Assembly: GCA_963991775.1 (NCBI GenBank)
Contig: CAXDRM010000002.1
Coordinates: 1-43,980 of the forward strand
DNA length: 43,980 bases
Source of the DNA: an uncultured Rickettsiales bacterium
GTDB taxonomy: Bacteria > Pseudomonadota > Alphaproteobacteria > Rickettsiales > JABIRX01
Direction: 5' to 3'
Below are positions 343-29,458 of the stretch, piece after piece; positions within the stretch are counted from its first letter, which is position 1, and each line of letters opens with the position of its first letter. A program made the position numbers and the translations under genes. The notes below the pieces were generated by a model. The model worked only from the letters and a program-made list of their open reading frames with translations, ran no database searches and was not told where the DNA came from.

Positions 343-1698
343 TTACCCCTTTAAGTGGTTAATAAAAAACTCTGCATCTTGTTGACCAAAATGCCTTTTA
401 ACTAATCCTGCAAGATCAGCTAAGAAAGCCTCATTTCTATTTTTCTGTTTAAGCTGATTTATAGATTTGTCAATAAGACCAGCAGCCATAACTTCGTTAT
501 TAGCTTTATTTATTAATAAAAATGAACCAGTAAATTTATTATCAGCAAATTTGTCAAAAGCCATTTCCTCAGCAAGTGAGAAATCTAAATGAGCAATTTG
601 ATTCTGTCTAATGTAATTAAAGTCATAAGTGCTAAAATCATTAATATTAACTAAGTGATTAATTTTAGTAATTTCGGCATTAGCATAATTATGATTTAAT
701 TTAAGGGTAAGATCGTAATTTTTATCTAAGCTAAATTCTTTCTTACTAAACCAAATTACATGGGCAGAAAAACCATTAGCAACTTGTGGTAATTTTTGTG
801 ATTCAGCAAATATTGTACCGCGATCAATATCTAAATCTCTATCTAATACTAAAGAAACTGACTGACCAGCATGCGCTTTTTTAACTTGCTCACCTGAGTA
901 ATGAATCTCTTTTACCTTAGCACTTTTATAACCAGGTAAAGCCATGATTTCTTGATTTGCCGATATATTACCACCAGAAATTATACCTTGATATAGCCGG
1001 TAATCCTGATGTTTAGAAACCACTTGTACTCTAAAACGAAAATCCCCTTCTTCTTGATCTGGATTATTAAATTTAGTAAGATAGCCATAAAGAGTATCAC
1101 CTTTATACCAAGAAATATTCTTACTTTTCTTAACTACATTATCACCACTAATTGCTACTACTGGAATAAAATAAAGATCAGCAAATTCTAAACCTTTAGT
1201 TTTAGCAATAAAATCATTACGAATATCATTAAAGCGATCTTGTGAATAATCAGCTAGATCCATTTTATTTATTACCACAACAAATCTTCTAATCCCAAAA
1301 AGATAAGCAATATATAAATGGCGTAAAGTTTGCACTTTTAGACCGGCTTTAGCATCCACTAGTAATAAAGCCAATTCAGAGTTACTAGCAGCAACTGCCA
1401 TATTTCTGGTATATTCTTCATGACCTGGCGAATCAGCAATAATAAATTTTTTGCCAGCTGCCGTAAAATAACGATATGCCACATCAATAGTAATTTTTTG
1501 ACGACGCTCAGATTCTAAACCTTCTACAAAAAGTGAGTAATCAACTTGATCTCCACCACTTAATTTTTTTATTTCAGAGATTTGATCATCATAGATTGAA
1601 TCTGTGTTATATAATAAATTTCCAATCAAAGTTGATTTACCATCATCAACGCTTCCAGAAGTTAGGAATTTTACAAGTAATTGTTTTTTATCAGTCAT
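343..1698 (-). CDS. cysN: Sulfate adenylyltransferase subunit 1 (CysN GTPase), with no fused APS-kinase domain
   Basis: 451-aa ORF with GTPase motifs [14 protein letters not shown] and NKMD. It has an EF-Tu-like C-terminal half and lies directly downstream of cysD. Confidence 0.9.
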
Positions 1699-1712
1699 TT
1701 TTTTTACCTTTA

Positions 1713-2612
1713 TTAGAAATATCCTTCTGCTTTTTTCTTCTCCATAGAACCTACCTGATCAGCATCAATCAAGCGACCTTGTCTTTCGGAATATTTAGAT
1801 TCTTTGATTTCTTCAATAATCTTATCAAGAGTATCTGCTTCAGAATTAATTGCACCGGTTAGTGGATAACATCCTAAAGTTCTGAAACGGATTTTTTCAT
1901 GCTTGATTTCTTCACCTGGCAATAATTTTAAACGATCATCATCAACCATGATTTTAACACCATCTCTTACTATAACTGGTCTTTTTTTAGCATAGTAAAG
2001 CGGCACAATATCTATTTTTTCTTGGCGAATATATTCCCAAATATCTAACTCAGTCCAATTAGATAATGGGAAAACACGCATAGATTCATCTTTATTCAGG
2101 CGAGTATTAAAAATATTGAATAATTCTGGTCTTTGGTTTTTAGAATCCCAAGCATGAAACTTATTACGAAAAGAAAAGATTCTTTCTTTAGAACGTGATT
2201 TTTCTTCATCACGCCTTGCTCCGCCAAAAGCCATATCAAAACGATATTTATCTAAAGCCTGACGCAAAGCTAAAGTCTTCATAATATGAGTATGCTGACT
2301 GCTACCATCTTTAAAAGGGTTAACATTATTTTTTACACCCTCTTGATTAGTATGCACCATTAAATCCAAATCATATTTCTTAGCTGTAGCATCACGAAAT
2401 TTAATCATCTCTTTAAATTTCCAAGTAGTATCAATATGCAACATTCTGACCGGTGGAGGTGCAGGATGAAAGGCTTTAAGTATTAAATGTAGCAATACTG
2501 AAGAATCTTTACCTATAGAATAAAGAAATATTGGATTTTCAAACTCAGCAAGAGCCTCTCTAATAATATAGATAGCCTCATTTTCGAGATATTTTAAATG
2601 TTCATATTTCAT
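1713..2612 (-). CDS. cysD: Sulfate adenylyltransferase subunit 2
   Basis: 299-aa ORF with the PP-loop [12 protein letters not shown] and a typical CysD C-terminus (RQGRLIDAD...EKKKAEGYF). There is a 3-nt gap to cysI. Confidence 0.9.
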
Positions 2613-2615
2613 AAG

Positions 2616-4235
2616 TTACACCAAATTTATTCTATTAATAAAATCACCAAATGCCTCTCCAGAGTTTCTTTCTGCCTTAAATTTAGGTAAAAGCTGATCT
2701 AGTTCTGTAAGTATTTCAGCTTCGCTTAAAGATTCTTTATATAATTTATTTAAACGCTCACCTCTCGGGCTTGCACCTAAATACATATTATATTTACCCA
2801 TTGCTTTACCAACAAAACCTATCTCAGCTAGATATGGTCGTGCACAACCGTTTGGACAACCTGTCATCCGCACAGAAATTGCTTGCTCGCTAAGTTCATG
2901 CTTAGTTTGCAACTCTTCAATTTTTGTTACTAATTCTGGTAAATATCTTTGCCCTTCAGCAAGTGCTAATGGGCAAGTATTAAGTGCCACACAAGCCATA
3001 GAATTATGGCGCAAAGCAGATTGCTCATTATTAATATTATATTTTTTTAGTATATCTGCTACCTTAGCTTTATTAGCTGGCTCAATATCAGAAAGACTGA
3101 CATTCTGATTATTACTAAAAGTGAAATTGACTAACTTTTGTTCTGCTAATTCATTTAAAGCTGTTTTTAAATCACCTAATACGCGACCATTTTCAACAAA
3201 GATGCTATAATGTAATTTGCCTAGATAATCTTCTTTCCAGCCGAGAGTATCTGTACGAGTTTTAAACTCATATTCTTTTGCTGCCTCTAGCTTAAAGCCT
3301 AAACGTTTTTCAAGCTCAGCTTTAAACCATTCCTCACCTAAACGATCAATAGTATATTTAAGCCTAGCTTGTTTACGATCTTCACGATTACCATTATCTC
3401 TTTGCACTGCCGCAATTTGAAAGCAGACATCTAAAATTTTATCTTTAGGCGCGTAACCAAAAATAGTACCAGCACGTGGATAGGTTTTTTCATTGCCATG
3501 CGTCATGCCCATGCCACCACCAGCTGATACATTAAAACCTAATAATTCGCCATCTTTAATAATAGCAATTAGACCAATATCATGTGCAAATAAATCTACA
3601 TCATTATATGGAGGAATTGCTAAAACAATTTTAAATTTACGTGGTAAATAAACTTCACCATAAAGCGGTTCATGCTCATCTTCCTTGTTAATTTTTTCAC
3701 CATCTAGCCAAATTTCATTAAAAGCATTAGTTTGTGGTAAAAGATGCTCACTAATTTTTTTACTAAATTCATATACTTCATATTCACCTGCACTCTTAGC
3801 TGGCTCAGAAGTAGACATCACATTACGATTCACATCTCCACAAGCAGCGATCGCATCTAAACCATATTTATCAAACCATTTAACTGTGGGCTTTAACTTA
3901 GATTTAATCACACCATGCAATTGAATAGTTTGACGCGTAGTAATTTTAATAACTCCTGTTGAATTATGTTTAGCAACTTCATTAACCCCTAACCATTGCT
4001 CAGCAGTAATTTTACCTCCAGGAATACGCAAGCGAATCATAAAAGAATAATCACGCTCTAATTTTTTAAGCGCGCGCTCAGTTCTACGATCACGATCATC
4101 TTGCTGATAAATTCCATGAAATTTTATTACCTGTTGATCATCAGCAGAAATTTGGCCTGTAAGCTGATCTTTTAGACCAGACTCCAAAGTTCCACGTAAA
4201 TAATTACTATTAATTTTAATTTTTTCGTTGCTCAT
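2616..4235 (-). CDS. cysI: Sulfite reductase hemoprotein (beta) subunit
   Basis: 539-aa ORF. The siroheme/[4Fe-4S] cysteine ligands are present: ACVALNTC (Cx5C) and TGCPNGC (Cx3C). Confidence 0.9.
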   Translation of the reverse strand: MSNEKIKINSNYLRGTLESGLKDQLTGQISADDQQVIKFHGIYQQDDRDRRTERALKKLERDYSFMIRLRIPGGKITAEQWLGVNEVAKHNSTGVIKITTRQTIQLHGVIKSKLKPTVKWFDKYGLDAIAACGDVNRNVMSTSEPAKSAGEYEVYEFSKKISEHLLPQTNAFNEIWLDGEKINKEDEHEPLYGEVYLPRKFKIVLAIPPYNDVDLFAHDIGLIAIIKDGELLGFNVSAGGGMGMTHGNEKTYPRAGTIFGYAPKDKILDVCFQIAAVQRDNGNREDRKQARLKYTIDRLGEEWFKAELEKRLGFKLEAAKEYEFKTRTDTLGWKEDYLGKLHYSIFVENGRVLGDLKTALNELAEQKLVNFTFSNNQNVSLSDIEPANKAKVADILKKYNINNEQSALRHNSMACVALNTCPLALAEGQRYLPELVTKIEELQTKHELSEQAISVRMTGCPNGCARPYLAEIGFVGKAMGKYNMYLGASPRGERLNKLYKESLSEAEILTELDQLLPKFKAERNSGEAFGDFINRINLV

Positions 4236-4254
4236 TTTTTAACTTTCACCTTAC

Positions 4255-5643
4255 TTAATAAACATCTTTCAAATATCTCCCCTCTTCTTCAAGAGCTTTT
4301 AATTGCTCCTCGCCAAGAATTTCAATTAAAGTATTTTCAACATCTTTAGCCATATGCTCCTTATCACCACAAACATAAAAATATGCGCCATTTTCTAGCC
4401 AGCTTTTAACTTCAGCCGCATTTTCTTTAATACGATGTTGCACATAGATTTTTTCTTCTTGATCGCGCGAAAAGGCCAAATCAATTTTAGTAAGCAAACC
4501 AGAAGCAATATATTCTTGCCACTCAGCTTGATATAAAAAATCTGTACGCGCATGTTGATCACCAAAAAACAACCAATTTTTACCTACAGCAGCTTGTGCA
4601 TCACGCTCAGCCATAAATGCTCTAAATGGTGCAATACCAGTACCTGGACCAACCATAATAATATCTTTATTAGCATCTGGTAATCTAAATTTATTATTTT
4701 TACTGATATAAAAATCTATTTTATCACCTACTTTTACTTCAGCTAAATAGCCTGAGCATAATCCGGTAACTTGTTCACCTTGCTCATTTTTATATTCAAC
4801 TTTAGCGACAGTTAAATGAACCTCGTCTTCAGTTTGCTCTAATGAGGAAGCAATTGAATATAAACGTGGTGAGTTATTACCAATTTTAATACCTAGCGCA
4901 TCACCTGGTTGATATTCAAGATCCTCCGCAGCAATTTCTACATGGTAAGTTTTTTTATTTGAACCAACATCATTAAGTAAGATATTATTGATTATCTCAC
5001 CTTGATATTTATTAGATTTTTTCTTTTTAGCAGGAGCTGCCGCAATAGTTTGCTTAGCACCTGATAAAGTTAGCGCATTAGTTACTTTAGCAAACCATTC
5101 ATCTAAATAATCTTCATAATCAAGATCATAAATGCTAAGCTCAACTAATTCTTTAGCACCAAGCTCAGTAAAACGTTTATGAAAATCTTTGGCGGTTTGA
5201 TTATAAAATTTGTAATTAGTATCACCTAAACCAAGTACTGCTACATTTAATTTATCTAACTTAAGCTCTTGCTCCATTACAGTTTCATAAAAACTTTCTG
5301 CGACTTCAGGAGGATCTCCTTCACCATGCGTACTAGTTAAGAAAATAACAAATTTTTCTTTTGCTAAATCAGCAGCTTGATAAGTCTCAATAGCTTTTAA
5401 TTTTATTTTTATACCAAGCTTTTTAAGGTGCGCACTTAAATCACTAGAAATCTTTTTAGTATTACCAGTATCTGTAGCATAAATAATTGTGGCTTTATCA
5501 ACATAGGTTGCATCACTTATTTGTGCTACTGCAGTAGTATCACCACTTAAACCTGCAAGATAACCGCTGGTCCAGCTTAATTCATTACCAGAAAGACCTG
5601 CAATAAATTGTTTTAATTCTGCTAACTTTTTATCATTTAACAT
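4255..5643 (-). CDS. cysJ: Sulfite reductase flavoprotein (alpha) subunit, compact form
   Basis: 462-aa ORF. It has a CysJ-type N-terminus (ELSWTSGYLAGL), a flavodoxin domain (IIYATDTGNTKK, LTSTHGEGDPP) and an FNR module (RLYSIASS, GPGTGIAPFRAF, YVCGD, C-terminal RYLKDVY). Confidence 0.8.
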   Translation of the reverse strand: MLNDKKLAELKQFIAGLSGNELSWTSGYLAGLSGDTTAVAQISDATYVDKATIIYATDTGNTKKISSDLSAHLKKLGIKIKLKAIETYQAADLAKEKFVIFLTSTHGEGDPPEVAESFYETVMEQELKLDKLNVAVLGLGDTNYKFYNQTAKDFHKRFTELGAKELVELSIYDLDYEDYLDEWFAKVTNALTLSGAKQTIAAAPAKKKKSNKYQGEIINNILLNDVGSNKKTYHVEIAAEDLEYQPGDALGIKIGNNSPRLYSIASSLEQTEDEVHLTVAKVEYKNEQGEQVTGLCSGYLAEVKVGDKIDFYISKNNKFRLPDANKDIIMVGPGTGIAPFRAFMAERDAQAAVGKNWLFFGDQHARTDFLYQAEWQEYIASGLLTKIDLAFSRDQEEKIYVQHRIKENAAEVKSWLENGAYFYVCGDKEHMAKDVENTLIEILGEEQLKALEEEGRYLKDVY

Positions 5644-6361
5644 CTTTGTTCCTAACTAATTTACCATTAACCATGTGTAAGCCACATTCTTTTTGCTCAT
5701 CACTTTCCCACCACCAGCGACCAGCTCTAACATCATCAATTGCTCTTACTGCTCTACTACAAGGTGCACAACCAATTGAACGATAACCTTCATCATAAAG
5801 CTTATTATAAGCAATATTATGTTTTTTTATTTCTGCCCAAACTTCCATCTCATCAAGATCAAGAATCGGGTAAAATTTAATAATATTTAAAGCCTCATCA
5901 TATTCAAAATAATCTTTATCAGCTCTTTCAGCTGAATGTTCACGCCGCAAACCACTAATCCAAATTTTCTTGCCTGCAAGTGCGCGTTGTAAAGGTTCAA
6001 CCTTTCTAATGTGGCAGCAATTAAGACGTAGCTCTTTACTATCATAAAAAGCATCAATGCCATTTTTAGTTACAAATTCTTGCAGAACTTCAACATCTGG
6101 ATAATAAGCTTTAATTTCTTTTTGATATTTCTTTTTATTATGCTGCCATAATTTATAAGTGTCGGTAGGTAATCTGCAAGTATCCAAAGTGAAGACCTCG
6201 ATAGCTAAATCATTTTTAAAAATTTCATCTAAAATGATTTGATCTTCAATGCTAAAACTAGTCGAAAAAGTTACGTCAGCTTCTTTAGCAATATAGGCTA
6301 GCTTTTCACGCCAATTAAGCTTTGCTGTATCAGCTAGATATTTTGTTATGAGCTCAACCAT
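5633..6361 (-). CDS. cysH: Adenylylsulfate (APS)-type sulfonucleotide reductase
   Basis: 242-aa ORF with the catalytic ECGLH motif plus Fe-S cluster cysteines CC (LNCCHIRKVEPL) and CxxC (SIGCAPCS). These cysteines mark APS rather than PAPS reductases. Confidence 0.8.
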   Translation of the reverse strand: MVELITKYLADTAKLNWREKLAYIAKEADVTFSTSFSIEDQIILDEIFKNDLAIEVFTLDTCRLPTDTYKLWQHNKKKYQKEIKAYYPDVEVLQEFVTKNGIDAFYDSKELRLNCCHIRKVEPLQRALAGKKIWISGLRREHSAERADKDYFEYDEALNIIKFYPILDLDEMEVWAEIKKHNIAYNKLYDEGYRSIGCAPCSRAVRAIDDVRAGRWWWESDEQKECGLHMVNGKLVRNKDVK

Positions 6362-7793
6362 GTTTCACCTGCTTTTCATCTTGTTTGAAATCAGCAAAAT
6401 ATTTGCCAGTAAGATTTTCTTCAAACCATTTATAATGTTCAATTTCTGCAACTGCTTCACCAATAATCACAATTGAAGGAGATACAAATTTTGTGCCGGA
6501 ATATTTTTTAGTAAAATCTTTAAGCGAAGAAACATAAGTTTTTTGAAACTCGGTTGTAGCTTGCTCTATTACTGCAACTCCAGTATCTGGGTTTTTAGCA
6601 AATTTTAGCAAATTAGCAACAATCATCTCAACCTGACTAGCAGACATATAAAATACCAAAGTATCATTTGAACGTGCCATATCCTGCCAATATGCTTCAT
6701 TGTAGATATCCTCTTTATAAAGAGTTAAAAATCTTACGGCTTTTACTTGATTACGAATTGTTAGTGGAATGCCGCTATAAGCAGCTGCACCATTAGCTGA
6801 GCTAACTCCTGGCACAACTTGAAAAGGCACTTTAAATTCTTTAATAGCAGCTATCTCTTCTGCTAAATGCGCAAAAATTGCTGTATCACCACCTTTTAAG
6901 CGAGCAACAATATTGCCTTCTTTAACATATTGGCGCAGCAATTCATTTATCTCTGCTTGGCTTTTATGGTGGTGATCTTTAGTTTTTCCAACGCTTATTT
7001 TTAAAGCATCTTTACGCGCATAATTTAAAATTTGTGGTGCCACTAAACGATCATATAATACAATATCTGCTCGTGATAGTAAGCGTATCGCTTTTAAGGT
7101 CATTAGGTCAGGATCACCAGGACCTGCTCCAATGAAATATACTGCAGCATTATCATTATCCGCACTTTGATTTAATTTGCTTAGCAATTTTTTTTCAGCT
7201 TTTTTTGTATTACCAGCTGTTATTTCCTCGACAATTTCACTTTCCAATACTTCTTGCCAAAATATTCTGCGTGGTTGCACTTCAGTTAGTTTAGCTTTTA
7301 CTTTTGCTCTGACTGATTTGATAAACTCATCTAATTTGGTAAAGCTAGCCGGTATGATTTTTTCGATTTTTTGCTTTACTAAACGCGCCAGCACTGGCGA
7401 AACTCCACCTGAAGAAATTGCCACGATAAAATCATTACGTTTTACAATAGCAGGAAAGATAAAATCAGATTTAGCCGGATCATCGACAATATTAACTATC
7501 TTGCCCTGGCTAGAAGCATCACGCGCAATATCTTCATTTAATTTATGATCATCTGTTGCACCAATAATCACATCATAATTAGCAATACCAATATCTGCAT
7601 AATCTGCAGTAATCAGCTTTAAATCATATTGCTCAGCAAGCTCTTTAGTATCTGCCAAAAAATCTAAAGCCACTAAAGTAATATTAGAGCTATATTCAAC
7701 CAATGTTTCTAATTTAGCGAGCGCAATTCTGCCTCCGCCAACTATTAGTAGTGATTTTTTCTTTAAATTGTAAAATAAGGGAAAGTAACCCAT
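6354..7793 (-). CDS. cysG: Siroheme synthase (precorrin-2 dehydrogenase/ferrochelatase plus uroporphyrinogen-III methyltransferase)
   Basis: It has an N-terminal Rossmann motif (LIVGGGRIALAKL) and a C-terminal SUMT domain (VYFIGAGPGDPDLMTLKA). The ORF track starts at a TTG at 7799; the ATG at 7793 (MGYFPLF...) is the more likely start. Confidence 0.85.
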   Translation of the reverse strand: MGYFPLFYNLKKKSLLIVGGGRIALAKLETLVEYSSNITLVALDFLADTKELAEQYDLKLITADYADIGIANYDVIIGATDDHKLNEDIARDASSQGKIVNIVDDPAKSDFIFPAIVKRNDFIVAISSGGVSPVLARLVKQKIEKIIPASFTKLDEFIKSVRAKVKAKLTEVQPRRIFWQEVLESEIVEEITAGNTKKAEKKLLSKLNQSADNDNAAVYFIGAGPGDPDLMTLKAIRLLSRADIVLYDRLVAPQILNYARKDALKISVGKTKDHHHKSQAEINELLRQYVKEGNIVARLKGGDTAIFAHLAEEIAAIKEFKVPFQVVPGVSSANGAAAYSGIPLTIRNQVKAVRFLTLYKEDIYNEAYWQDMARSNDTLVFYMSASQVEMIVANLLKFAKNPDTGVAVIEQATTEFQKTYVSSLKDFTKKYSGTKFVSPSIVIIGEAVAEIEHYKWFEENLTGKYFADFKQDEKQVKHG

Positions 7794-8037
7794 CGTCAAA
7801 AAAATAAATATCTAAAAAATTTGTCTTAAGAAATTTCCAGCCTCTAACTTTAAAATCTTAGACAAAGAAAATGCTAAGTGATTAGCAACATGAAATTTGA
7901 CGACAGCAACAACAGCACAGCACTTGTCTTAAAGTGTTTGCGAAAGTTTTAGAGTTGTAAAAGTTAGTAGCAACCATTCTTCTAAAATTGTTGTTGTTAA
8001 AAATCTGCAGCAGAATATATAAATATCACGGTAAATG

Positions 8038-19619: not shown

Positions 19620-19696
19620 GGGCCAGTAGCTCAGTTGGTTAGAGCACGTCGCTCATAACGATGTGGTCGTGGGTTCAAGTCCCTCCTGGCCCACCA
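19620..19696 (+). tRNA. tRNA with CAT anticodon (elongator Met or lysidine-modified Ile2), encoded CCA
   Basis: I folded the cloverleaf by hand. The acceptor stem is GGGCCAG/CTGGCCC, the D arm GCTCAGTTGGTTAGAGC, and the anticodon stem-loop CGTCG-CTCATAA-CGATG. The T arm GTGGG-TTCAAGT-CCCTC has one U-U mismatch. The variable and T regions (TGGTCG.GGGTTCAAGTCC) resemble tRNA-Ile2. It lacks the initiator features of three G-C pairs in the anticodon stem and a 1-72 mismatch. Confidence 0.85.
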
Positions 19697-19714: not shown

Positions 19715-20158
19715 CTACCAATGTTTTAGACCTTGAGCACCCCATTTATTTGGCGCCATTGGATTACCAAAAATAGAGGCATCTTCAAGTCTAAGTGGAT
19801 AACCTTGACCCGATGCTTTTGGTGTCATGCCCGCTTCTCTTAAAGTTGATACCGCAACATGTCGACAAAAAATCATGGCAGATGACCAACCATTTAGATA
19901 ATAGGTATTATTATCAATCACCATCTCCTTATCCTTATTATATTTATAAAAAGTTTTATAATAATCATTGGCAAATCCTGTTGATAAACCAGTTTCACAA
20001 CCATCTAACCAACCTTGTTGATAATCAGGCGGACCATCCGGCATTTGCTTAAATAATCTACTTTTTGGCGCAAAAATACTATCCTTGGTTGGATTACATG
20101 CGCCTAATAATAAGCTAAAAATAATAATAAATATGTTAAATAATTTTACTTTGAACAT
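19715..20158 (-). CDS. Lipoprotein L1 with one copy of the uncharacterised two-Cys module
   Basis: 147 aa with a signal peptide and lipobox LLGAC. The module runs PDGPPDYQQGWLDGCETG ... YYLNGWSSAMIFC. It overlaps the stop of L2 by 13 nt. Confidence 0.7.
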   Translation of the reverse strand: MFKVKLFNIFIIIFSLLLGACNPTKDSIFAPKSRLFKQMPDGPPDYQQGWLDGCETGLSTGFANDYYKTFYKYNKDKEMVIDNNTYYLNGWSSAMIFCRHVAVSTLREAGMTPKASGQGYPLRLEDASIFGNPMAPNKWGAQGLKHW

Positions 20159-20646
20159 TGAAATATACCTTTACATCCGACAAACATTGTATTCCACCAT
20201 GCCTCACCTTGACCTGGTAATCTTACCCCACCTCCAAAATTTAAATCAACACCTTGTGCAAGAGGATATGCAACTGTTGGGTTACCAGCTTTACTTTTGT
20301 GAGATTCTGGTCTTAGCCAAAACCATTTATGCTCAGGCTCAATAAATGCATCTATTGGCTCAAATGCATAACGATTAACAATATGAAAGCAATATAAGTA
20401 ACCTCTTCGCCAAGCATCATAATATTCATCATCAGCCATTAACTCACCATCTTGTTCATATCTAAAAAACATCTTTTGAAAACTATTTCCACGTGAGTAC
20501 ATTGCTGTATTACAACCTTGTCTAGCACCTTTTACCAAGCCATATGAACCATATTTAGGCAAGTCAATGTTGGCAGGATATAGCACATATTTTGAGCATG
20601 AAGTTAAGGCTGATAATGTTAATAATAAGATAAGTATTTCTTTCAT
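20146..20646 (-). CDS. Lipoprotein L2 with one (more diverged) copy of the two-Cys module plus a C-terminal extension
   Basis: 166 aa with lipobox ALTSC. The module runs GLVKGARQGCNTA ... FFRYEQD ... YYDAWRRGYLYC. There is an additional C-terminal Cys pair (GCKGIFQC). Confidence 0.7.
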   Translation of the reverse strand: MKEILILLLTLSALTSCSKYVLYPANIDLPKYGSYGLVKGARQGCNTAMYSRGNSFQKMFFRYEQDGELMADDEYYDAWRRGYLYCFHIVNRYAFEPIDAFIEPEHKWFWLRPESHKSKAGNPTVAYPLAQGVDLNFGGGVRLPGQGEAWWNTMFVGCKGIFQCSK

Positions 20647-20654
20647 ATATAAGC

Positions 20655-21275
20655 CTATAGAAAATTTCTTCTTCCTGACTCCATAAGGTCATAGTAACGA
20701 TGACAATACCAGAAGGCAGTTTTCCAACCTGCATTATATTTTGGGTTAAAACGATCACCCTCGATATAACGAGCATCTTTAAAAAAGCGGTATACAAATT
20801 TATGCTTAGTTTTACCATTTGCACCTTTACCGCTGTTACAACCATCTACCCAACCACGACGATATTCTTCTGGCCCTGGCGGTGCATCTGATAATAGGTT
20901 TTTTCTAATACTGCCTGGCATAGCTTTATTTTGTAGACTCCAACTAACTCTAAAAAATGAGGCTGGCCTACCAATTGCCATTGATTTCATCCATAGATAA
21001 CAGTAGGTAAAAGCATCTTGCCAGGTTCTACGATATAATAGTGATCTATTGTTAAGTACCGGATGTTTATAGTAACCTTGGAAAGTACTTGCGAATAAAT
21101 TATATTGATTCTCAGACATTCCAGAATTACAGCCATCAGTAAATCCCGCCTGGAACTCAGGCGGTCCAGGTGGTGGAGTTTTTTTAGCCCATACAGGTTT
21201 AGACAAAAAATTTATCATCTTATTACTACATGAACCTAAAGCTAGAAATGTTACCAAAAATAATATTTTCCACAT
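20655..21275 (-). CDS. Lipoprotein L3 with two tandem copies of the two-Cys module
   Basis: 206 aa with lipobox ALGSC. The modules run PPGPPEFQAGFTDGCNSG ... YRRTWQDAFTYC and PPGPEEYRRGWVDGCNSG ... YNAGWKTAFWYC. Confidence 0.75.
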   Translation of the reverse strand: MWKILFLVTFLALGSCSNKMINFLSKPVWAKKTPPPGPPEFQAGFTDGCNSGMSENQYNLFASTFQGYYKHPVLNNRSLLYRRTWQDAFTYCYLWMKSMAIGRPASFFRVSWSLQNKAMPGSIRKNLLSDAPPGPEEYRRGWVDGCNSGKGANGKTKHKFVYRFFKDARYIEGDRFNPKYNAGWKTAFWYCHRYYDLMESGRRNFL

Positions 21276-21281
21276 AAATTC

Positions 21282-21614
21282 TTACGCAACAACGTTATCA
21301 AGTAAGTACAGACAATGCTCTTCTCCATCAAAGAAACCAGCTGCATAGACTCTATTTTGAGTCAATAACCAACCATCAAATTCAGGTTTTATATTTCTAA
21401 GCATACCCTGTGCTGCAATACCAAATGAGGATTTACAACCATCTCTAAAACCCTTAGTGTAATCATCATCACCATCAGGTAGACCTCTGGCCATATAGGG
21501 ACGACCTCTCAAACCCCAATCCCATGATTTAGGCATACTCCACGCTTCATGCACACATGAGCTTAAAGTTAAGAAAATGATTGATAATGTAAAAAAACGT
21601 CTGATTTTGCTCAT
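21282..21614 (-). CDS. Lipoprotein L4 with one copy of the two-Cys module
   Basis: 110 aa with lipobox TLSSC. The module runs PDGDDDYTKGFRDGCKSS ... VYAAGFFDGEEHC. There is a 6-nt gap to L3. Confidence 0.7.
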   Translation of the reverse strand: MSKIRRFFTLSIIFLTLSSCVHEAWSMPKSWDWGLRGRPYMARGLPDGDDDYTKGFRDGCKSSFGIAAQGMLRNIKPEFDGWLLTQNRVYAAGFFDGEEHCLYLLDNVVA

Positions 21615-21710
21615 TTACCGCCTAAAATTAAAATGCACGTATATTATAGCATATTTTTAGGCTTAGAGCAAATGCAAGGCAGGTTTGAAGCTAAAGAAAG
21701 AAAACCAGGC

Positions 21711-22475
21711 TTAGAAACGATCCAACTTATATGCTAGAACGCAAGTTTTTGAATTTTCATAGTTTGCGTAGGTAGCAAGATCTGTAAGGCAGCTACCACT
21801 TACGCCTAGAGGCGCATAATTGCTACCAATAAAGGCTATAAGATTGCCTTCTGAAGGATGAGCATCATCTATTTTTTTATCGTAGCGTAACGCATCTTTG
21901 GGCAGCAAATTTCCTAACAAAGGCATATTGCTTACATCTGCAGCAATGTCTAAACCACCTACTACTAAATAATTTCTTTCTGCAACTGCAATATCAAGGC
22001 TAGAGCCAGATTTTCTAGAAAAACTACTATAGTGATGAGCCGCATATCTCCCGTAATTATCATAATTTGTTTTTGGAAAAATATCTTCATCTGTAGGAGT
22101 AGAAGAGCTTGATATAGTAAATTCTGGGTTTACAATATTAGCCGCTTTAAGATGCAACCAAAATTTTGAAAACTCAGCGGGGCTCTCAATTAAACCATCG
22201 CCATCACCCGAACAAATATCCGAGCCACCATTATCTCCTAAACAATTATTACCAAAAAATTGGGCTGCTTTAGCAAAATCACCAGGATATTGTCTATATG
22301 TACTTATGAAACTAACTACCGAAGTTTTGTATTTTTCAAGATTAGAAATATCTTTATTAAGAGCTGTAGTATTTAAAAGTCTGCTCCCTGCTACTATACC
22401 AACAGCGAGTAAACCAATAATAATCAAAGTAACTGATAATTCTACTAATGAAAAAGCTCGGTTATTTAACATCAT
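21711..22475 (-). CDS. Type IV pilin / pseudopilin-like protein P1 (prepilin-type N-terminal domain)
   Basis: 254 aa. It has a short basic leader MMLNNRA, then FSLVELSVTLIIIGLLAVGIVAG (Phe+1, Glu+5, hydrophobic helix). A C-terminal Cys pair lies 17 residues apart (GSCLTDLATYANYENSKTCV), like a pilin D-region. It is a paralogue of P2 at 28078. Confidence 0.75.
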   Translation of the reverse strand: MMLNNRAFSLVELSVTLIIIGLLAVGIVAGSRLLNTTALNKDISNLEKYKTSVVSFISTYRQYPGDFAKAAQFFGNNCLGDNGGSDICSGDGDGLIESPAEFSKFWLHLKAANIVNPEFTISSSSTPTDEDIFPKTNYDNYGRYAAHHYSSFSRKSGSSLDIAVAERNYLVVGGLDIAADVSNMPLLGNLLPKDALRYDKKIDDAHPSEGNLIAFIGSNYAPLGVSGSCLTDLATYANYENSKTCVLAYKLDRF

Positions 22476-22519: not shown

Positions 22520-23959
22520 CTACTTACCAGTCATGATTCTATCAACTAACTGCTGCGTAGTAGGTATAAAACCATCAGCATAATATGGATCAGCAGCAAA
22601 TTTAAAGGCATTATGACCAGCAAACATTAGCTCATTATCAACATTACCATCTACAATAATATTTTGTAGAGTTTTTTGAATACAGAAACTTCTAGGATCA
22701 GGTTTCTTACCTGTAGTATAATTATGCTCTTCTGAACTATACCAATTACTAAATTTACAAGCAGTTAAACAACCCATGCAATCAGCTTGATCCTTTTTAA
22801 TTTCCATAGCTTTTTCAGGAGATACAAAAATAAGCGTGCTATCTTCAGTTTTCATCACCTCGGTAAAGCCTTGGCTTTTCCAATTTTCAGCTAATTTAGC
22901 AGAGTCTTGATCTGTAAAAAATTGACGATTTCTTCTACCATAAGTAACTGCAACATTATGCTCTGCTGTTGCCTCACTACTATATGCAACTTGACGATCA
23001 GATCTAGCTCGCAATTCTTTGATAAAATCATTATTGACTGCTGATGAATAAAAACCTGTTGGGCTGAAACGGTTTAAAAAAACATCACCTTCTTTTAAAG
23101 TAAGTAGCTTTTGCTTCCATTCTTCAGGAGCAGGGTTCTCTTTAGTTACAATTGGCCTTGTACCATATTGAAAAGCAATTTTACCAATTTTTTTATCATC
23201 TAACCATTCAGCGTAATCTTCTAAGTGCCAAACTCCTCCTGCCATGATAATTGGTACATCTTCAAGACCCACCTCATTCATAAAAGCACGAATTTCAACA
23301 AGACGTGGATATGGATCTTGAGCTTGATTAGGATCTTCAGCATTAGAAAGACCATTATGCCCTCCTGCTTTCCAAGGATCTTCATAAACTACCCCACCAA
23401 TATATTGTGAAAATTTTGAGTAAGATCTTTTCCATAAAGCTCTAAATGCACGCATTGATGAAACAATTGGATAATAAAAGAAATCATATTTTTCTGCGAG
23501 AGGCCCCAAACGATAAGGCATACCTGCACCACAAGTGATACCATGAATTAAGCCTTTTGCTTTTTCCATAACACCATGAATGATACGCTCTGTACCAGCT
23601 GCTTCCCAAAGTAGATTCATATGGATTCTACCGGTATTTTTTGCAATATCTGCAGCAATACGTGCTTGATCAATAGCAGCTTTAATTGAATGCTGCATTA
23701 ATTCTTCATGTTTTTCTAAACGAGTTTTACCTTTGTAAATAAGAGGTATTGCCTCTCCATTTGCATCGATTCTTTCAGCATTTACGCCTGAAAATGTTCC
23801 AACTGCTCCTGTGGCAGCAAAATGGCCTGCACTAAAGCCGTTACTCACTCCAACACCCTTACCACCTTCAATAATTGGTAAAGTTTCTAGCCCAGAAAGA
23901 GCTAATGATTTTAATCCTGATAACAAAATAGATTCACCTGTATGATTTCGATTTAACAT
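22520..23959 (-). CDS. Nitronate monooxygenase / 2-nitropropane dioxygenase family FMN oxidoreductase (long form)
   Basis: About 480 aa with TIM-barrel FMN motifs (PIIEGGKGVGVS, ITCGAGMPY, IIMAGGVW) and a C-terminal Cys motif CMGCLTAC. The start is either the ATG at 23974 or the one at 23959. Confidence 0.6.
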   Translation of the reverse strand: MLNRNHTGESILLSGLKSLALSGLETLPIIEGGKGVGVSNGFSAGHFAATGAVGTFSGVNAERIDANGEAIPLIYKGKTRLEKHEELMQHSIKAAIDQARIAADIAKNTGRIHMNLLWEAAGTERIIHGVMEKAKGLIHGITCGAGMPYRLGPLAEKYDFFYYPIVSSMRAFRALWKRSYSKFSQYIGGVVYEDPWKAGGHNGLSNAEDPNQAQDPYPRLVEIRAFMNEVGLEDVPIIMAGGVWHLEDYAEWLDDKKIGKIAFQYGTRPIVTKENPAPEEWKQKLLTLKEGDVFLNRFSPTGFYSSAVNNDFIKELRARSDRQVAYSSEATAEHNVAVTYGRRNRQFFTDQDSAKLAENWKSQGFTEVMKTEDSTLIFVSPEKAMEIKKDQADCMGCLTACKFSNWYSSEEHNYTTGKKPDPRSFCIQKTLQNIIVDGNVDNELMFAGHNAFKFAADPYYADGFIPTTQQLVDRIMTGK

Positions 23960-24056
23960 TCTATATAAGCACATTTTAAGGTCAAATTATTAATTGATCT
24001 TAATAAGTCAATTAACGTATAATGACGGCTTACATGTAAAATGTCTTATGATAAAA

Positions 24057-27991: not shown

Positions 27992-28067
27992 GCCGGAATA
28001 GCTCAGTTGGTAGAGCATTCGCCTTGTAAGCGACAGGTCGGGAGTTCGAGTCTCTCTTCCGGCACCA
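27992..28067 (+). tRNA. tRNA-Thr (TGT anticodon), encoded CCA
   Basis: Hand-folded cloverleaf. The acceptor stem is GCCGGAA/TTCCGGC, the D arm GCTCAGTTGGTAGAGC, the anticodon loop CTTGTAA and the T arm GGGAG-TTCGAGT-CTCTC. Confidence 0.9.
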
Positions 28068-28077
28068 TTTTTTTAGG

Positions 28078-28827
28078 TTGTTGATTTTGTCTAAAAAAGC
28101 TTTTTCACTTGTCGAACTTTCTCTTGTCATTGTAATTATTGGCTTGTTAATTGGTGGTATATCTGCTGGTAAACAAGTAATCGAAAATGCCAAATTACGC
28201 GCTACTATTGCTAAAATTAAGCAATATGAAGTGGCTTTAAATAGTTTTTATACGCAATATAAAAAACTTCCTGGTGATATTGATAATGCTACTGATTTTT
28301 GGTCAGGCACTCAAAATGGTGATGCAGATTTTCAGATAGATGCACCATGCACTGGTGGTCCAAATGGTTTGGAATCATTAATAAGTTTAGAGCATCTTAG
28401 CCTAGCTGAGTTAATTACTGGTTCATTTACCGGTATTGGTGTTACTGATGGCGCAGAAAGTGAATTAGCAGCTCTTGGCACAAATGTTGATAATTTTCCT
28501 TATGCAGGTTCTGCTGCTATTTTTCATTATCTTACAAGCTATACTTTATATAGCTCAGGCCCAACTATCACTACCAATAAAAATGTCTTAAATATTGGTG
28601 CACCAAGTGCTAGCTGCCCTACTCTTGATACACCTATTCTTTCTAGCGTAGAAGCTTATATGATTGATCAAAAGCTAGATGATCTAAATCCTGGCACTGG
28701 TTATATTCTAAGTGGCGCAGCTACAACAGATTGCGCCGAGACTGTAAATTCAATTTACGAATATAATGTAGATTCAGATGAAACTTGCCTAATTTATTAT
28801 GTTTTAGAGGGGCTTGATTTGCTATAA
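28078..28827 (+). CDS. Type IV pilin / pseudopilin-like protein P2 (paralogue of P1)
   Basis: 249 aa in the ORF track. It has a leader ...SKKA, then FSLVELSLVIVIIGLLIGGISAG. It shares Y-x-x-[YL]-PGD and D-x-K-[IL]-DD motifs with P1. A C-terminal Cys pair lies 18 residues apart (TDCAETVNSIYEYNVDSDETCL). There is no ATG start: the candidates are TTG at 28078, 28081 or 28087, and the last would give the leader MSKKA. Confidence 0.65.
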   Translation: MLILSKKAFSLVELSLVIVIIGLLIGGISAGKQVIENAKLRATIAKIKQYEVALNSFYTQYKKLPGDIDNATDFWSGTQNGDADFQIDAPCTGGPNGLESLISLEHLSLAELITGSFTGIGVTDGAESELAALGTNVDNFPYAGSAAIFHYLTSYTLYSSGPTITTNKNVLNIGAPSASCPTLDTPILSSVEAYMIDQKLDDLNPGTGYILSGAATTDCAETVNSIYEYNVDSDETCLIYYVLEGLDLL

Positions 28828-28906: not shown

Positions 28907-29458
28907 TTGCGCAACAGAATAAATCATTTTTTAACAGAGTTAAATGATTGGTGTAATACTGAGCTAAATTATAATGCAATTAATGCTAATAATATTGGGA
29001 GAGCTTATTTAGACATATACAATGCATTTTATAACTCAGAAATTTGCAATCAAAATGTAGATTTAGATTTGTCATCATATAATTTACGGCATGTGCCATT
29101 TTCAATATTATATATCAGTAGGATTGAGTCACTAAATATTGATAATAATCACTTTAATCAAGAAGAGCTCCAACAATTTTATAATAGATTGGATAATGTA
29201 TCTGCCATTAATAATCATTTTCTTAGTAATAATTATGAATCTTTATCAATTGCTGTACAGCCAGATGATAGTTCTGTTGAATTCGAGACTTCTTCATGGA
29301 GCTCATCATCCGTAGCTACTATAGTGTCTCAAGAATCGCAAAATAGTAATTACAACACATCTAATAACCCATATAATATTAGGCAAATATCAGGATCAGT
29401 TTGGCAAGATAGAGTATTAGAAGATCAATTTATTCTTAGGAGGCATAGAGAGAGATAA
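28907..29458 (+). CDS. Small leucine-rich-repeat protein with Ser/Asn-rich tail (effector-like); hypothetical
   Basis: 183-aa ORF with 2-3 LRR units (VDLDLSSYNLRHVPFSILYISR, IESLNIDNNHFNQEELQQFYNR, LDNVSAINNHF). A Trp/Cys-containing cap region precedes them and a low-complexity S/N tail follows. It has no ATG or internal Met codon; the only candidate start is a TTG at 28907 with an AGG 8 nt upstream. Confidence 0.45.
   Translation: MRNRINHFLTELNDWCNTELNYNAINANNIGRAYLDIYNAFYNSEICNQNVDLDLSSYNLRHVPFSILYISRIESLNIDNNHFNQEELQQFYNRLDNVSAINNHFLSNNYESLSIAVQPDDSSVEFETSSWSSSSVATIVSQESQNSNYNTSNNPYNIRQISGSVWQDRVLEDQFILRRHRER

Follow-up and report, generated by a model that had tools for sequence, protein, structure and literature searches.

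The lipoprotein gene array and its repeated module

We analysed a 43,980-nucleotide (nt) stretch of DNA from an uncultured Rickettsiales bacterium (GenBank assembly GCA_963991775.1, contig CAXDRM010000002.1; hereafter, the window), which contains a tandem array of four small genes on the minus strand. These genes, L1 to L4, encode lipoprotein-type proteins built around a two-cysteine module of ~65 amino acids (aa). Five copies of the module are present, labelled M1 to M5 in gene order: one each in L1, L3 and L4 (M1, M4 and M5) and two in L2 (M2 and M3). L1 and L2 are 6 nt apart and L2 and L3 8 nt apart, and L3 overlaps L4 by 13 nt, a spacing that is compatible with translational coupling. The coordinates of these and all other features are collected in Table 1.

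Lipoprotein signals were called with a rule of the PROSITE PS51257 type, [LVI]-[ASTVIG]-[GAS]-C following a positively charged n-region and a hydrophobic h-region. All four window proteins have such a signal, their N-termini running from a short, charged n-region through a hydrophobic stretch to the lipobox. Residue +2 is V, S, S and N in L1 to L4, respectively, and never Asp; the +2 sorting rule, by which the earlier note would send the proteins to the outer membrane, was derived from E. coli and may not apply to this lineage. The strict rule also holds for 93 of the 102 proteins encoded in arrays of this kind, with near-matches in the remaining nine. Among the 149 best family representatives, at least 111 have a lipobox, and many of the others are N-terminally truncated fragments. 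Judged by these signals, L1 to L4 are of lipoprotein type, with lipidation as a prediction.

Identity between modules is only 18-45%, and the similarity of the five in the window was assessed in a leave-one-out test. Profile hidden Markov models (HMMs) built from four of the modules scored the fifth at 22.8-57.6 bits, against maxima of 7.4-9.4 bits for 500 shuffles of each module. None of the shuffles equalled the real score (z-scores 8-30), so the similarity is not due to chance. When all six frames of the window were scanned with the module profile, these five copies were returned and no others. The offsets between the two cysteines of each module are 41, 43, 45, 41 and 44 from M1 to M5, which leaves 40-44 residues between them. 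The mature proteins are rich in aromatic residues, with 14-18% F/W/Y and 3-4% Trp, compared to a mean of 9.1% F/W/Y (standard deviation 2.3%, maximum 12.9%) and 0.8% Trp in the 31 other open reading frames (ORFs) of the window. The earlier note had speculated that this aromatic content might form a surface for binding glycans or peptidoglycan.

The module has two conserved motifs, each of which lies on one of the two predicted helices described below. The helix A motif reads [FYW]-x2-G-[WFY]-x-D-G-C-x2-G and the helix B motif Y-[YF]-x2-W-x-D-A-x2-Y-C. Residues G15, G19, C20, Y51 and C62 are conserved in 97-99% of 105 modules, and positions 12, 16, 51, 55 and 61 are aromatic in at least 90%. 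The small residues G15, G19 and G23 of helix A have the spacing i, i+4, i+8 and form a GxxxGxxxG-like face. Both cysteines are kept in 104 of the 105 modules, the only exception being M2 of locus L091 (3834-4178), which has lost both. Protein P0025, from a 593-bp contig, is likewise without both. In these two, the only family members seen to lack the module cysteines, the replacements are C to L or F, and C to G. Paired loss of this kind is the expectation for a disulfide pair, and from the conservation pattern we infer one disulfide per module, joining the two invariant cysteines.

Most of the local features had been described in an earlier note on this DNA that was made from the letters alone. 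Its four minus-strand ORFs of 110, 206, 166 and 147 aa, with their gaps and overlap, were re-derived identically, and the lipoboxes LSSC, LGSC, LTSC and LGAC with their +2 residues, as well as every one of its motif strings, are present in the translations. The note's division into five ~65-aa modules, two of them in the 206-aa protein, is upheld by the leave-one-out comparison with shuffles. We obtained the same count of intervening residues between the cysteines, the high aromatic content that it remarked on is borne out by comparison with the rest of the window, and the single disulfide per module that it had put forward is plausible given the joint retention and joint loss of the pair.

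Table 1. Features of the array and its surroundings. Positions refer to the window unless a locus is named; residue numbers refer to the full-length proteins.
Feature	Position	Strand	Description
L1, M1-type lipoprotein	21282..21614	-	ORF, 110 aa; lipobox LSSC, Cys20
L1 module (M1)	21285-21494		aa 41-110; Cys60, Cys101
L2, M2+M3 fusion lipoprotein	20655..21275	-	206 aa; lipobox LGSC, Cys16
L2 module M2	20970-21188		aa 30-102; Cys49, Cys92
L2 linker between M2 and M3			~25 aa; low confidence in AlphaFold2 model
L2 module M3	20673-20897		aa 127-201; Cys146, Cys191
L3, M4-type lipoprotein	20146..20646	-	166 aa; lipobox LTSC, Cys17
L3 module (M4)	20353-20562		aa 29-98; Cys45, Cys86; N-terminal motif degenerate
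L3 C-terminal tail			~70 aa, terminating in CKGIFQC (Cys158, Cys164)
L4, M5-type lipoprotein	19715..20158	-	147 aa; lipobox LGAC, Cys21
L4 module (M5)	19829-20056		aa 35-110; Cys54, Cys98
L4 C-terminal tail			~39 aa, predicted disordered; last residues GAQGLKHW
Candidate array promoter, extended -10-like element	21643..21651	-	TGCTATAAT; lies within the 96 nt that separate L1 from the pilin-like gene
tRNA(CAT)	19620..19696	+	18 nt from L4 stop codon, convergent with array
tRNA(CAT) at locus L088	5323-5399
tRNA(CAT) at locus L091	5566-5642
tRNA(CAT) at locus L094	8675-8750
tRNA(CAT) at locus L099	8578-8654
tRNA(CAT) at locus L102	8571-8646
tRNA(CAT) at locus L103	8585-8660
tRNA(CAT) at locus L105	8770-8843
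Pilin-like gene	21711-22475	same as array	96 nt upstream of L1; N_methyl motif
NMO-family (nitronate monooxygenase/FabK-like) protein	22520-23974	-	484 aa; immediately upstream of pilin-like gene
Second type IV pilin-like ORF	28078-28827	+	249 aa; N-terminus KKAFSLVELS; no Pfam match at E <=0.001
Assimilatory sulfate-reduction/sirohaem cluster	343-7799	-	complete
P0130, single-chain relative	L110 1274-2200		Campylobacterota metagenome-assembled genome (MAG)

Five module types in an invariant order

The module HMM was run over 26 loci, and arrays cut by a contig end were left out of the count. All 21 complete, non-redundant arrays contained exactly five modules, contiguous and co-directional. 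They are encoded by five genes, or by four where one polypeptide holds two modules, and their order from M1 to M5 is identical throughout. The window array has this same organisation, with M1, M2+M3, M4 and M5 in a single direction, each behind its own lipobox or fused behind one.

To compare the modules across arrays, we determined for each its best match in another array. The best match lay at the same position in 94% (M1), 84% (M2), 85% (M3), 52% (M4) and 75% (M5) of comparisons, where 20% would be expected by chance; M1 is thus the most sharply defined type. Mean scores were 61-81 bits against same-position counterparts and 28-56 bits against paralogues within the same array, and in a neighbour-joining tree the modules likewise group by position. 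By these sequence comparisons, the five modules are distinct, positionally conserved orthologue types, a finding that goes beyond the earlier note.

The distribution of gene fusions shows that the 206-aa L2 is, on the same comparative grounds, a lineage-specific fusion of M2 and M3, which had not been recognised before. The fusion is confined to an AT-rich lineage consisting of the window, L002-L004, L005/L006, L090 and P0002-P0011, and the two modules are separate genes in L001, L007, L088 and L091-L108. P0061 represents another, different two-module fusion, the type of which is ambiguous between M4 and M5.

Some module types have extra segments outside the module. In the AT-rich lineage (window, L002, L090), M1 proteins have an N-terminal MPKSWxWG...RPY motif. 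The C-terminus of M4 proteins is usually C[VI][LIF]CPNE, replaced by CKGI[FL]QC in the AT-rich lineage, and M5 proteins have a Gly/Asn/aromatic-rich tail of 39-102 aa across the arrays. The C-terminal cysteine pair of M4 proteins (20146-20220 in L3; also in L001, L007 and L091-L098) could be a second disulfide, or a redox or metal-binding motif. At L005 (ENA monsoon_2 contig_36376_pilon), many genes are split by frameshifts, among them those for 2-oxoglutarate dehydrogenase, LpxB, T2SSE and the M5 lipoprotein, the last divided into two 70-aa ORFs. As these genes are intact in the near-identical L006, the splits are most likely an assembly error and not pseudogenisation.

Five paralogous modules in a fixed order, sometimes fused, make for an unusually rigid arrangement. 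Small paralogous lipoproteins rarely come as an obligate set, and where a set is fixed this usually signals a machine of fixed stoichiometry.

Predicted structure and searches for a known family

AlphaFold2 models were obtained for the 206-aa L2 (alignment of 22 sequences; predicted template-modelling score, pTM, 0.69) and for mature L4 (27 sequences; pTM 0.58). In both models the modules consist of two long helices with predicted local distance difference test (pLDDT) values of 90-97 and, between them, a less confidently modelled stretch of ~25 residues; one invariant cysteine lies on each helix. The helices span residues 39-54, 79-100, 136-152 and 178-199 in L2, and 24-40 and 65-88 in mature L4. 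The linkers and the L4 tail (pLDDT <50) are disordered. That the L2 model reached a pTM of 0.69 despite its disordered linker suggests that M2 and M3 pack together.

As had been proposed from the letters, the module could not be assigned to any named family. Pfam and NCBIfam searches with the four window proteins at E <=1 returned nothing save a meaningless signal-peptide match, and scans of the same proteins against PHROGs and PADLOC gave no matches. Sequence searches of the PDB, for which the queries were a single protein and a profile of 19 modules, yielded only noise, such as dihydrofolate reductase (E = 0.01) and a tetratricopeptide repeat (E = 0.5). Structural searches were similarly negative: Foldseek found nothing at E <1 for either AlphaFold2 model in the PDB (best E = 3.4-4, template-modelling score <0.3), nor for the L4 model in BFVD. 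A Pfam scan of 149 relatives gave lipoprotein-signal matches and one sub-threshold match to DUF2799, and nothing else.

Long proteins in which a shorter version of the module is repeated within one chain were among the best matches to the module. Three of these best matches, P0057, P0064 and P0130, contain 4-10 tandem compact repeats. The compact repeat has 40 aa, a cysteine offset of 31 and the pattern Y-x2-G-Y-x-DGC-x-SA-x-G ... Y-R-R-GW-x-E-G-x3-C. An hhalign comparison of the compact repeat with the module gave a probability of 97.8% (E = 1e-12), the difference being an 11-residue loop deletion. Judged by this profile alignment, the compact repeats are homologous to the module. The three proteins are very basic and rich in Cys, Tyr and Arg, and represent an uncharacterised repeat-protein family of their own. 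The N-terminal part of P0057 also contains a His-rich stretch, and this protein has an unassigned C-terminal domain of ~200 aa in common with P0064. A genome scan for P0064 gave no match, no locus was found for P0057 either, and a word-indexed search with the compact-repeat profile gave no matches.

We conclude with high confidence that the module defines a real, new lipoprotein domain family, inherited as a five-part unit. The family is well defined yet named by no database, and it merits a new Pfam or NCBIfam entry. As the module is small, confidently predicted and rich in conserved aromatics, it should be tractable for structure determination and binding assays.

Distribution, hosts and selection

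The size of the family was estimated by an exhaustive HMMER profile search of 1.84 billion cluster representatives, which identified 675 protein clusters at E <=1e-3 and 260 at E <=1e-10. The 675 are 50% identity clusters, all unnamed. A word-indexed search of 5.8 billion proteins detected 11 proteins related to L2 and 43 that matched the module profile; these were unnamed or "hypothetical", a few came from "Rickettsiales bacterium" MAGs, and none had a Pfam domain. When species-representative genomes were scanned with a profile of the M2 subtype, which is well conserved, we identified 19 loci, nearly all in marine and lake MAGs of uncultured Rickettsiales, Rickettsiaceae or Alphaproteobacteria. 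The family was not found in the plasmid and phage collections searched.

More than 20 genomes have these ORFs intact, with identities of 25-85%. Between the arrays of the closest pairs (60-85% aa identity), non-synonymous divergence (dN) was 0.09-0.36 and synonymous divergence (dS) was saturated, with an omega of 0.03-0.19 where it could be computed. Because dS is saturated even for these closest pairs, a dN/dS comparison of the window with its relatives is uninformative. The genes are real and under purifying selection.

The window GyrB is only ~60% identical to that of any represented alphaproteobacterium. The window, with a GC content of about 34% that is not anomalous in the array, encodes full assimilatory sulfate reduction along with purine, folate and ubiquinone functions. 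The sulfate-reduction cluster comprises a CysN-like GTPase, two PAPS-reductase-family proteins, the haemoprotein and flavoprotein of sulfite reductase, and CysG. GyrB divergence and metabolic gene content together point to a deep-branching, AT-rich alphaproteobacterial host, apparently free-living in its metabolism although the array relatives bear a "Rickettsiales" label. Uncultured aquatic relatives of the Rickettsiales are of interest for the evolution of host association.

Genomic neighbourhood of the arrays

We found no protein-coding neighbour of the array that was conserved across lineages. ThiL-like and fabD/EamA-like neighbours are common only within sub-clades. A tRNA(CAT) gene is a conserved neighbour, which in six other loci of several lineages lies 53-84 nt downstream of the array and co-directional with it. 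At a seventh locus the tRNA is inverted at 235 nt, and the window tRNA(CAT) is also inverted relative to the array and differs in its anticodon stem. ARAGORN assigns the array-adjacent tRNAs(CAT) to Met, but their best E. coli matches are annotated as tRNA-Ile. They have a G1:C72 pair and thus cannot be initiators. The L103-type tRNA matches two places per genome, as ileX and ileY would. All this makes tRNA-Ile2 (lysidine) the probable identity of these tRNAs, and not tRNA-Met. No riboswitch or RNA other than the tRNA was found in the array region.

The earlier note had correctly placed the array between this tRNA and a pilin-like gene, and both neighbours were found where it had put them. Its view of the region as an accessory-looking slot does not stand, as the array is vertically conserved in varied housekeeping contexts, with normal GC content and no integrase next to it at any locus. 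The tRNA adjacency is itself conserved across lineages, which argues for an ancient, stable locus instead of an accessory island. An origin from a mobile element was rejected on similar grounds, namely the lack of plasmid and phage matches, of an adjoining integrase and of anomalous GC content.

The implied link to the pilin fared no better. Only two of the 21 loci, the window and L096, have a pilin-like gene no more than 4 kb from the array; that of L096 is homologous and lies ~3 kb upstream. Upstream of the array, the nearest relatives of the window array carry a divergent fabD-like acyltransferase gene in place of a pilin-like gene. The array also has its own -10-like element, TGCTATAAT, a candidate promoter that the promoter consensus scanner did not list because of its weak -35 match. 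With these observations, we rejected a link of the array to the pilin. Three arrays, those of the window, L101 and L102, are flanked by AcrB/HlyD-type genes, but the identity between these pumps is no more than ~24%, so we regard a link to resistance-nodulation-division efflux as a coincidence.

Several other genes were noted near the arrays. The second pilin-like ORF of the window is 30% identical to the first and directly follows a tRNA-Thr gene (27992-28067); each of the two paralogues lies within ~2 kb of a tRNA gene. The second ORF is followed by a 183-aa ORF (28907-29458) with no family. The NMO-family gene of the window and the fabD-like gene of its closest relatives are both of fatty-acid-synthesis type, which may be a coincidence. 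At L005, T2SSE and T2SSF genes are located ~4 kb downstream of the array. Directly downstream of the five-gene array at L007 (9723-12472) are a 307-aa signal-peptide protein ending in WYGF, which resembles an outer-membrane beta-barrel, and a 613-aa MshEN-domain glycosyltransferase-2, neither of which is conserved at other arrays.

A putative envelope complex and its alternatives

With moderate confidence, we propose that the four genes form one operon encoding a co-functional, probably hetero-oligomeric envelope lipoprotein complex composed of M1 to M5. The set would be confined to one clade of Rickettsiales-like Alphaproteobacteria, all aquatic and uncultured. Each protein would be exported by Sec, lipidated at the lipobox cysteine and freed of its signal peptide, leaving it tethered to a membrane. 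The tethered proteins would expose ~65-aa domains of two long alpha-helices, in which a periplasmic disulfide between the invariant cysteines would staple helix A to helix B. On the periplasmic side of a membrane, the five module types might then line up as a hetero-oligomer whose helical pairs stack like a solenoid. Such a stack may be a scaffold of the cell envelope, for structure or for binding. We propose a hetero-oligomer because there are always five modules in a fixed order, their genes are tightly coupled, neighbouring modules can be fused, and single-chain tandem relatives exist. That no protein-coding neighbour is conserved is in keeping with a self-contained unit.

Several points weigh against this proposal. 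Both the disulfide and the physical interaction among the five modules are inferred indirectly, and the cysteine losses in M2 of L091 and in P0025 may be a single evolutionary event. Positional orthology is weaker for M4 and M5 than for the other modules, and Foldseek retrieved no solenoid or other structural analogue from the PDB or BFVD. Every host is uncultured. Finally, a fixed order and co-occurrence also fit independent paralogues in one co-regulated operon.

Such independent paralogues have a modest but real chance of being the correct explanation. The five would then form no complex, each functioning on its own, for instance through a different envelope partner or ligand, and their order would reflect co-regulation and ancient tandem duplication. 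The low identity between modules and the position-specific extras (M1 motif, M4 CxxC tail, M5 tail) would fit sub-functionalisation, and the Foldseek searches offer no template for an oligomer. Independent paralogues would usually differ in copy number, however, and we observed neither loss nor extra duplication in any of the 21 complete arrays, across very divergent lineages. The fusion of adjacent modules in some lineages and the single-chain relatives with their 4-10 tandem copies also argue for modules that work together.

It is improbable that the module is a divergent branch of DUF2799 (PF10973) missed through the limited sensitivity of profiles. The match behind this idea is that of P0130, at 21.9 bits (E = 2.4e-4), and spans the helix A motif (aromatic-x2-G-aromatic-x-[DE]-G). 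This is half a module, and the score is under the 25-bit gathering threshold of DUF2799. P0130 is the only one of 149 representatives with even such a sub-threshold match, and no window protein matches the family at E <=1. Membership would also leave the mechanism unexplained, as the function of DUF2799 is itself unknown.

We consider it very unlikely that the proteins are associated with a pilus or secretion system, as pilotin-like or docking factors for the pilin-like protein encoded on an accessory island at the tRNA. In its favour are the same-strand pilin-like gene 96 nt upstream, the pilin-like gene of L096 and the T2SSE and T2SSF genes of L005. This reading is largely refuted by the comparative context described above, in which pilin-like neighbours are the exception, the closest relatives have a fabD-like gene instead, the array has a promoter-like element and the conserved tRNA adjacency, normal GC content and lack of integrases speak against an island. 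The proteins also match no pilotin, secretin or pilus family. A reading of the ORFs as spurious frames or as relics in decay is scarcely credible and is refuted by conservation across 675 protein clusters with invariant cysteines, the integrity of the arrays and a dN far below dS.

For the hetero-oligomeric complex that we favour, we can suggest a specific geometry only tentatively, and it may well be wrong. This would be a lipid-anchored "split solenoid" with 1:1:1:1:1 stoichiometry, in which four or five different lipoproteins supply the five helical pairs, each stapled by a disulfide, that make up a stack or ring. If true, it would be a previously unknown envelope complex specific to free-living aquatic Rickettsiales-like bacteria, and might, for example, assume a tethering or scaffolding role that elsewhere belongs to Lpp/Pal-type lipoproteins. 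A lineage-specific envelope complex would be a phylogenetic marker as well as a lead into the envelope biology of its hosts.

Comparison with known systems

The single-chain multi-repeat proteins are homologous counterparts of the array, with which they have the pattern Y-x2-G-Y-x-DGC ... Y-x2-GW-x2-G-x3-C in common. Unlike the array proteins, they have an N-terminal membrane anchor or signal without a lipobox, their repeats are very basic, and they carry extra C-terminal domains. DUF2799 is the only named family with any signal. DUF2799 proteins are proteobacterial lipoproteins with a W-x3-G-x2-DG-x2-G motif. A full-text search of a literature library found no paper on the family.

Pilotins of secretins (PulS/OutS type) are small helical lipoproteins with a disulfide. 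The window proteins are also small and of lipoprotein type, and their array adjoins a pilin-like gene. Unlike a pilotin, which is one protein, the array encodes five obligatory paralogous modules. Pfam and NCBIfam gave no pilotin match, no secretin gene is adjacent to the array, and linkage to secretin or pilus genes is not conserved.

The Hcp proteins of Helicobacter offer a comparison for the proposed assembly, as their disulfide-cross-linked alpha/alpha pairs stack into a superhelical interaction scaffold (PMC3851747). Like HcpB and HcpC, which consist of Sel1-like repeats, the array proteins would be exported bacterial proteins made of repeated alpha/alpha pairs, with the disulfide in our case predicted and the stacking an analogy. 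Pfam gave no Sel1 match, and no Hcp chain came up when the PDB was searched by sequence; the Foldseek results against the PDB list no Sel1-like repeat entries, do not include HcpB or HcpC and give no superposition on 1KLX or 1OUV. The modules are also longer (~65 aa versus 36-38), and the disulfides of Hcp tether one repeat to the next, in contrast to the proposed staple within each module. In Hcp all helix pairs reside in one chain, whereas here they are distributed over four or five lipoproteins. With these differences, side-by-side stacking of the helical pairs would, by analogy, loosely resemble the Hcp superhelix.

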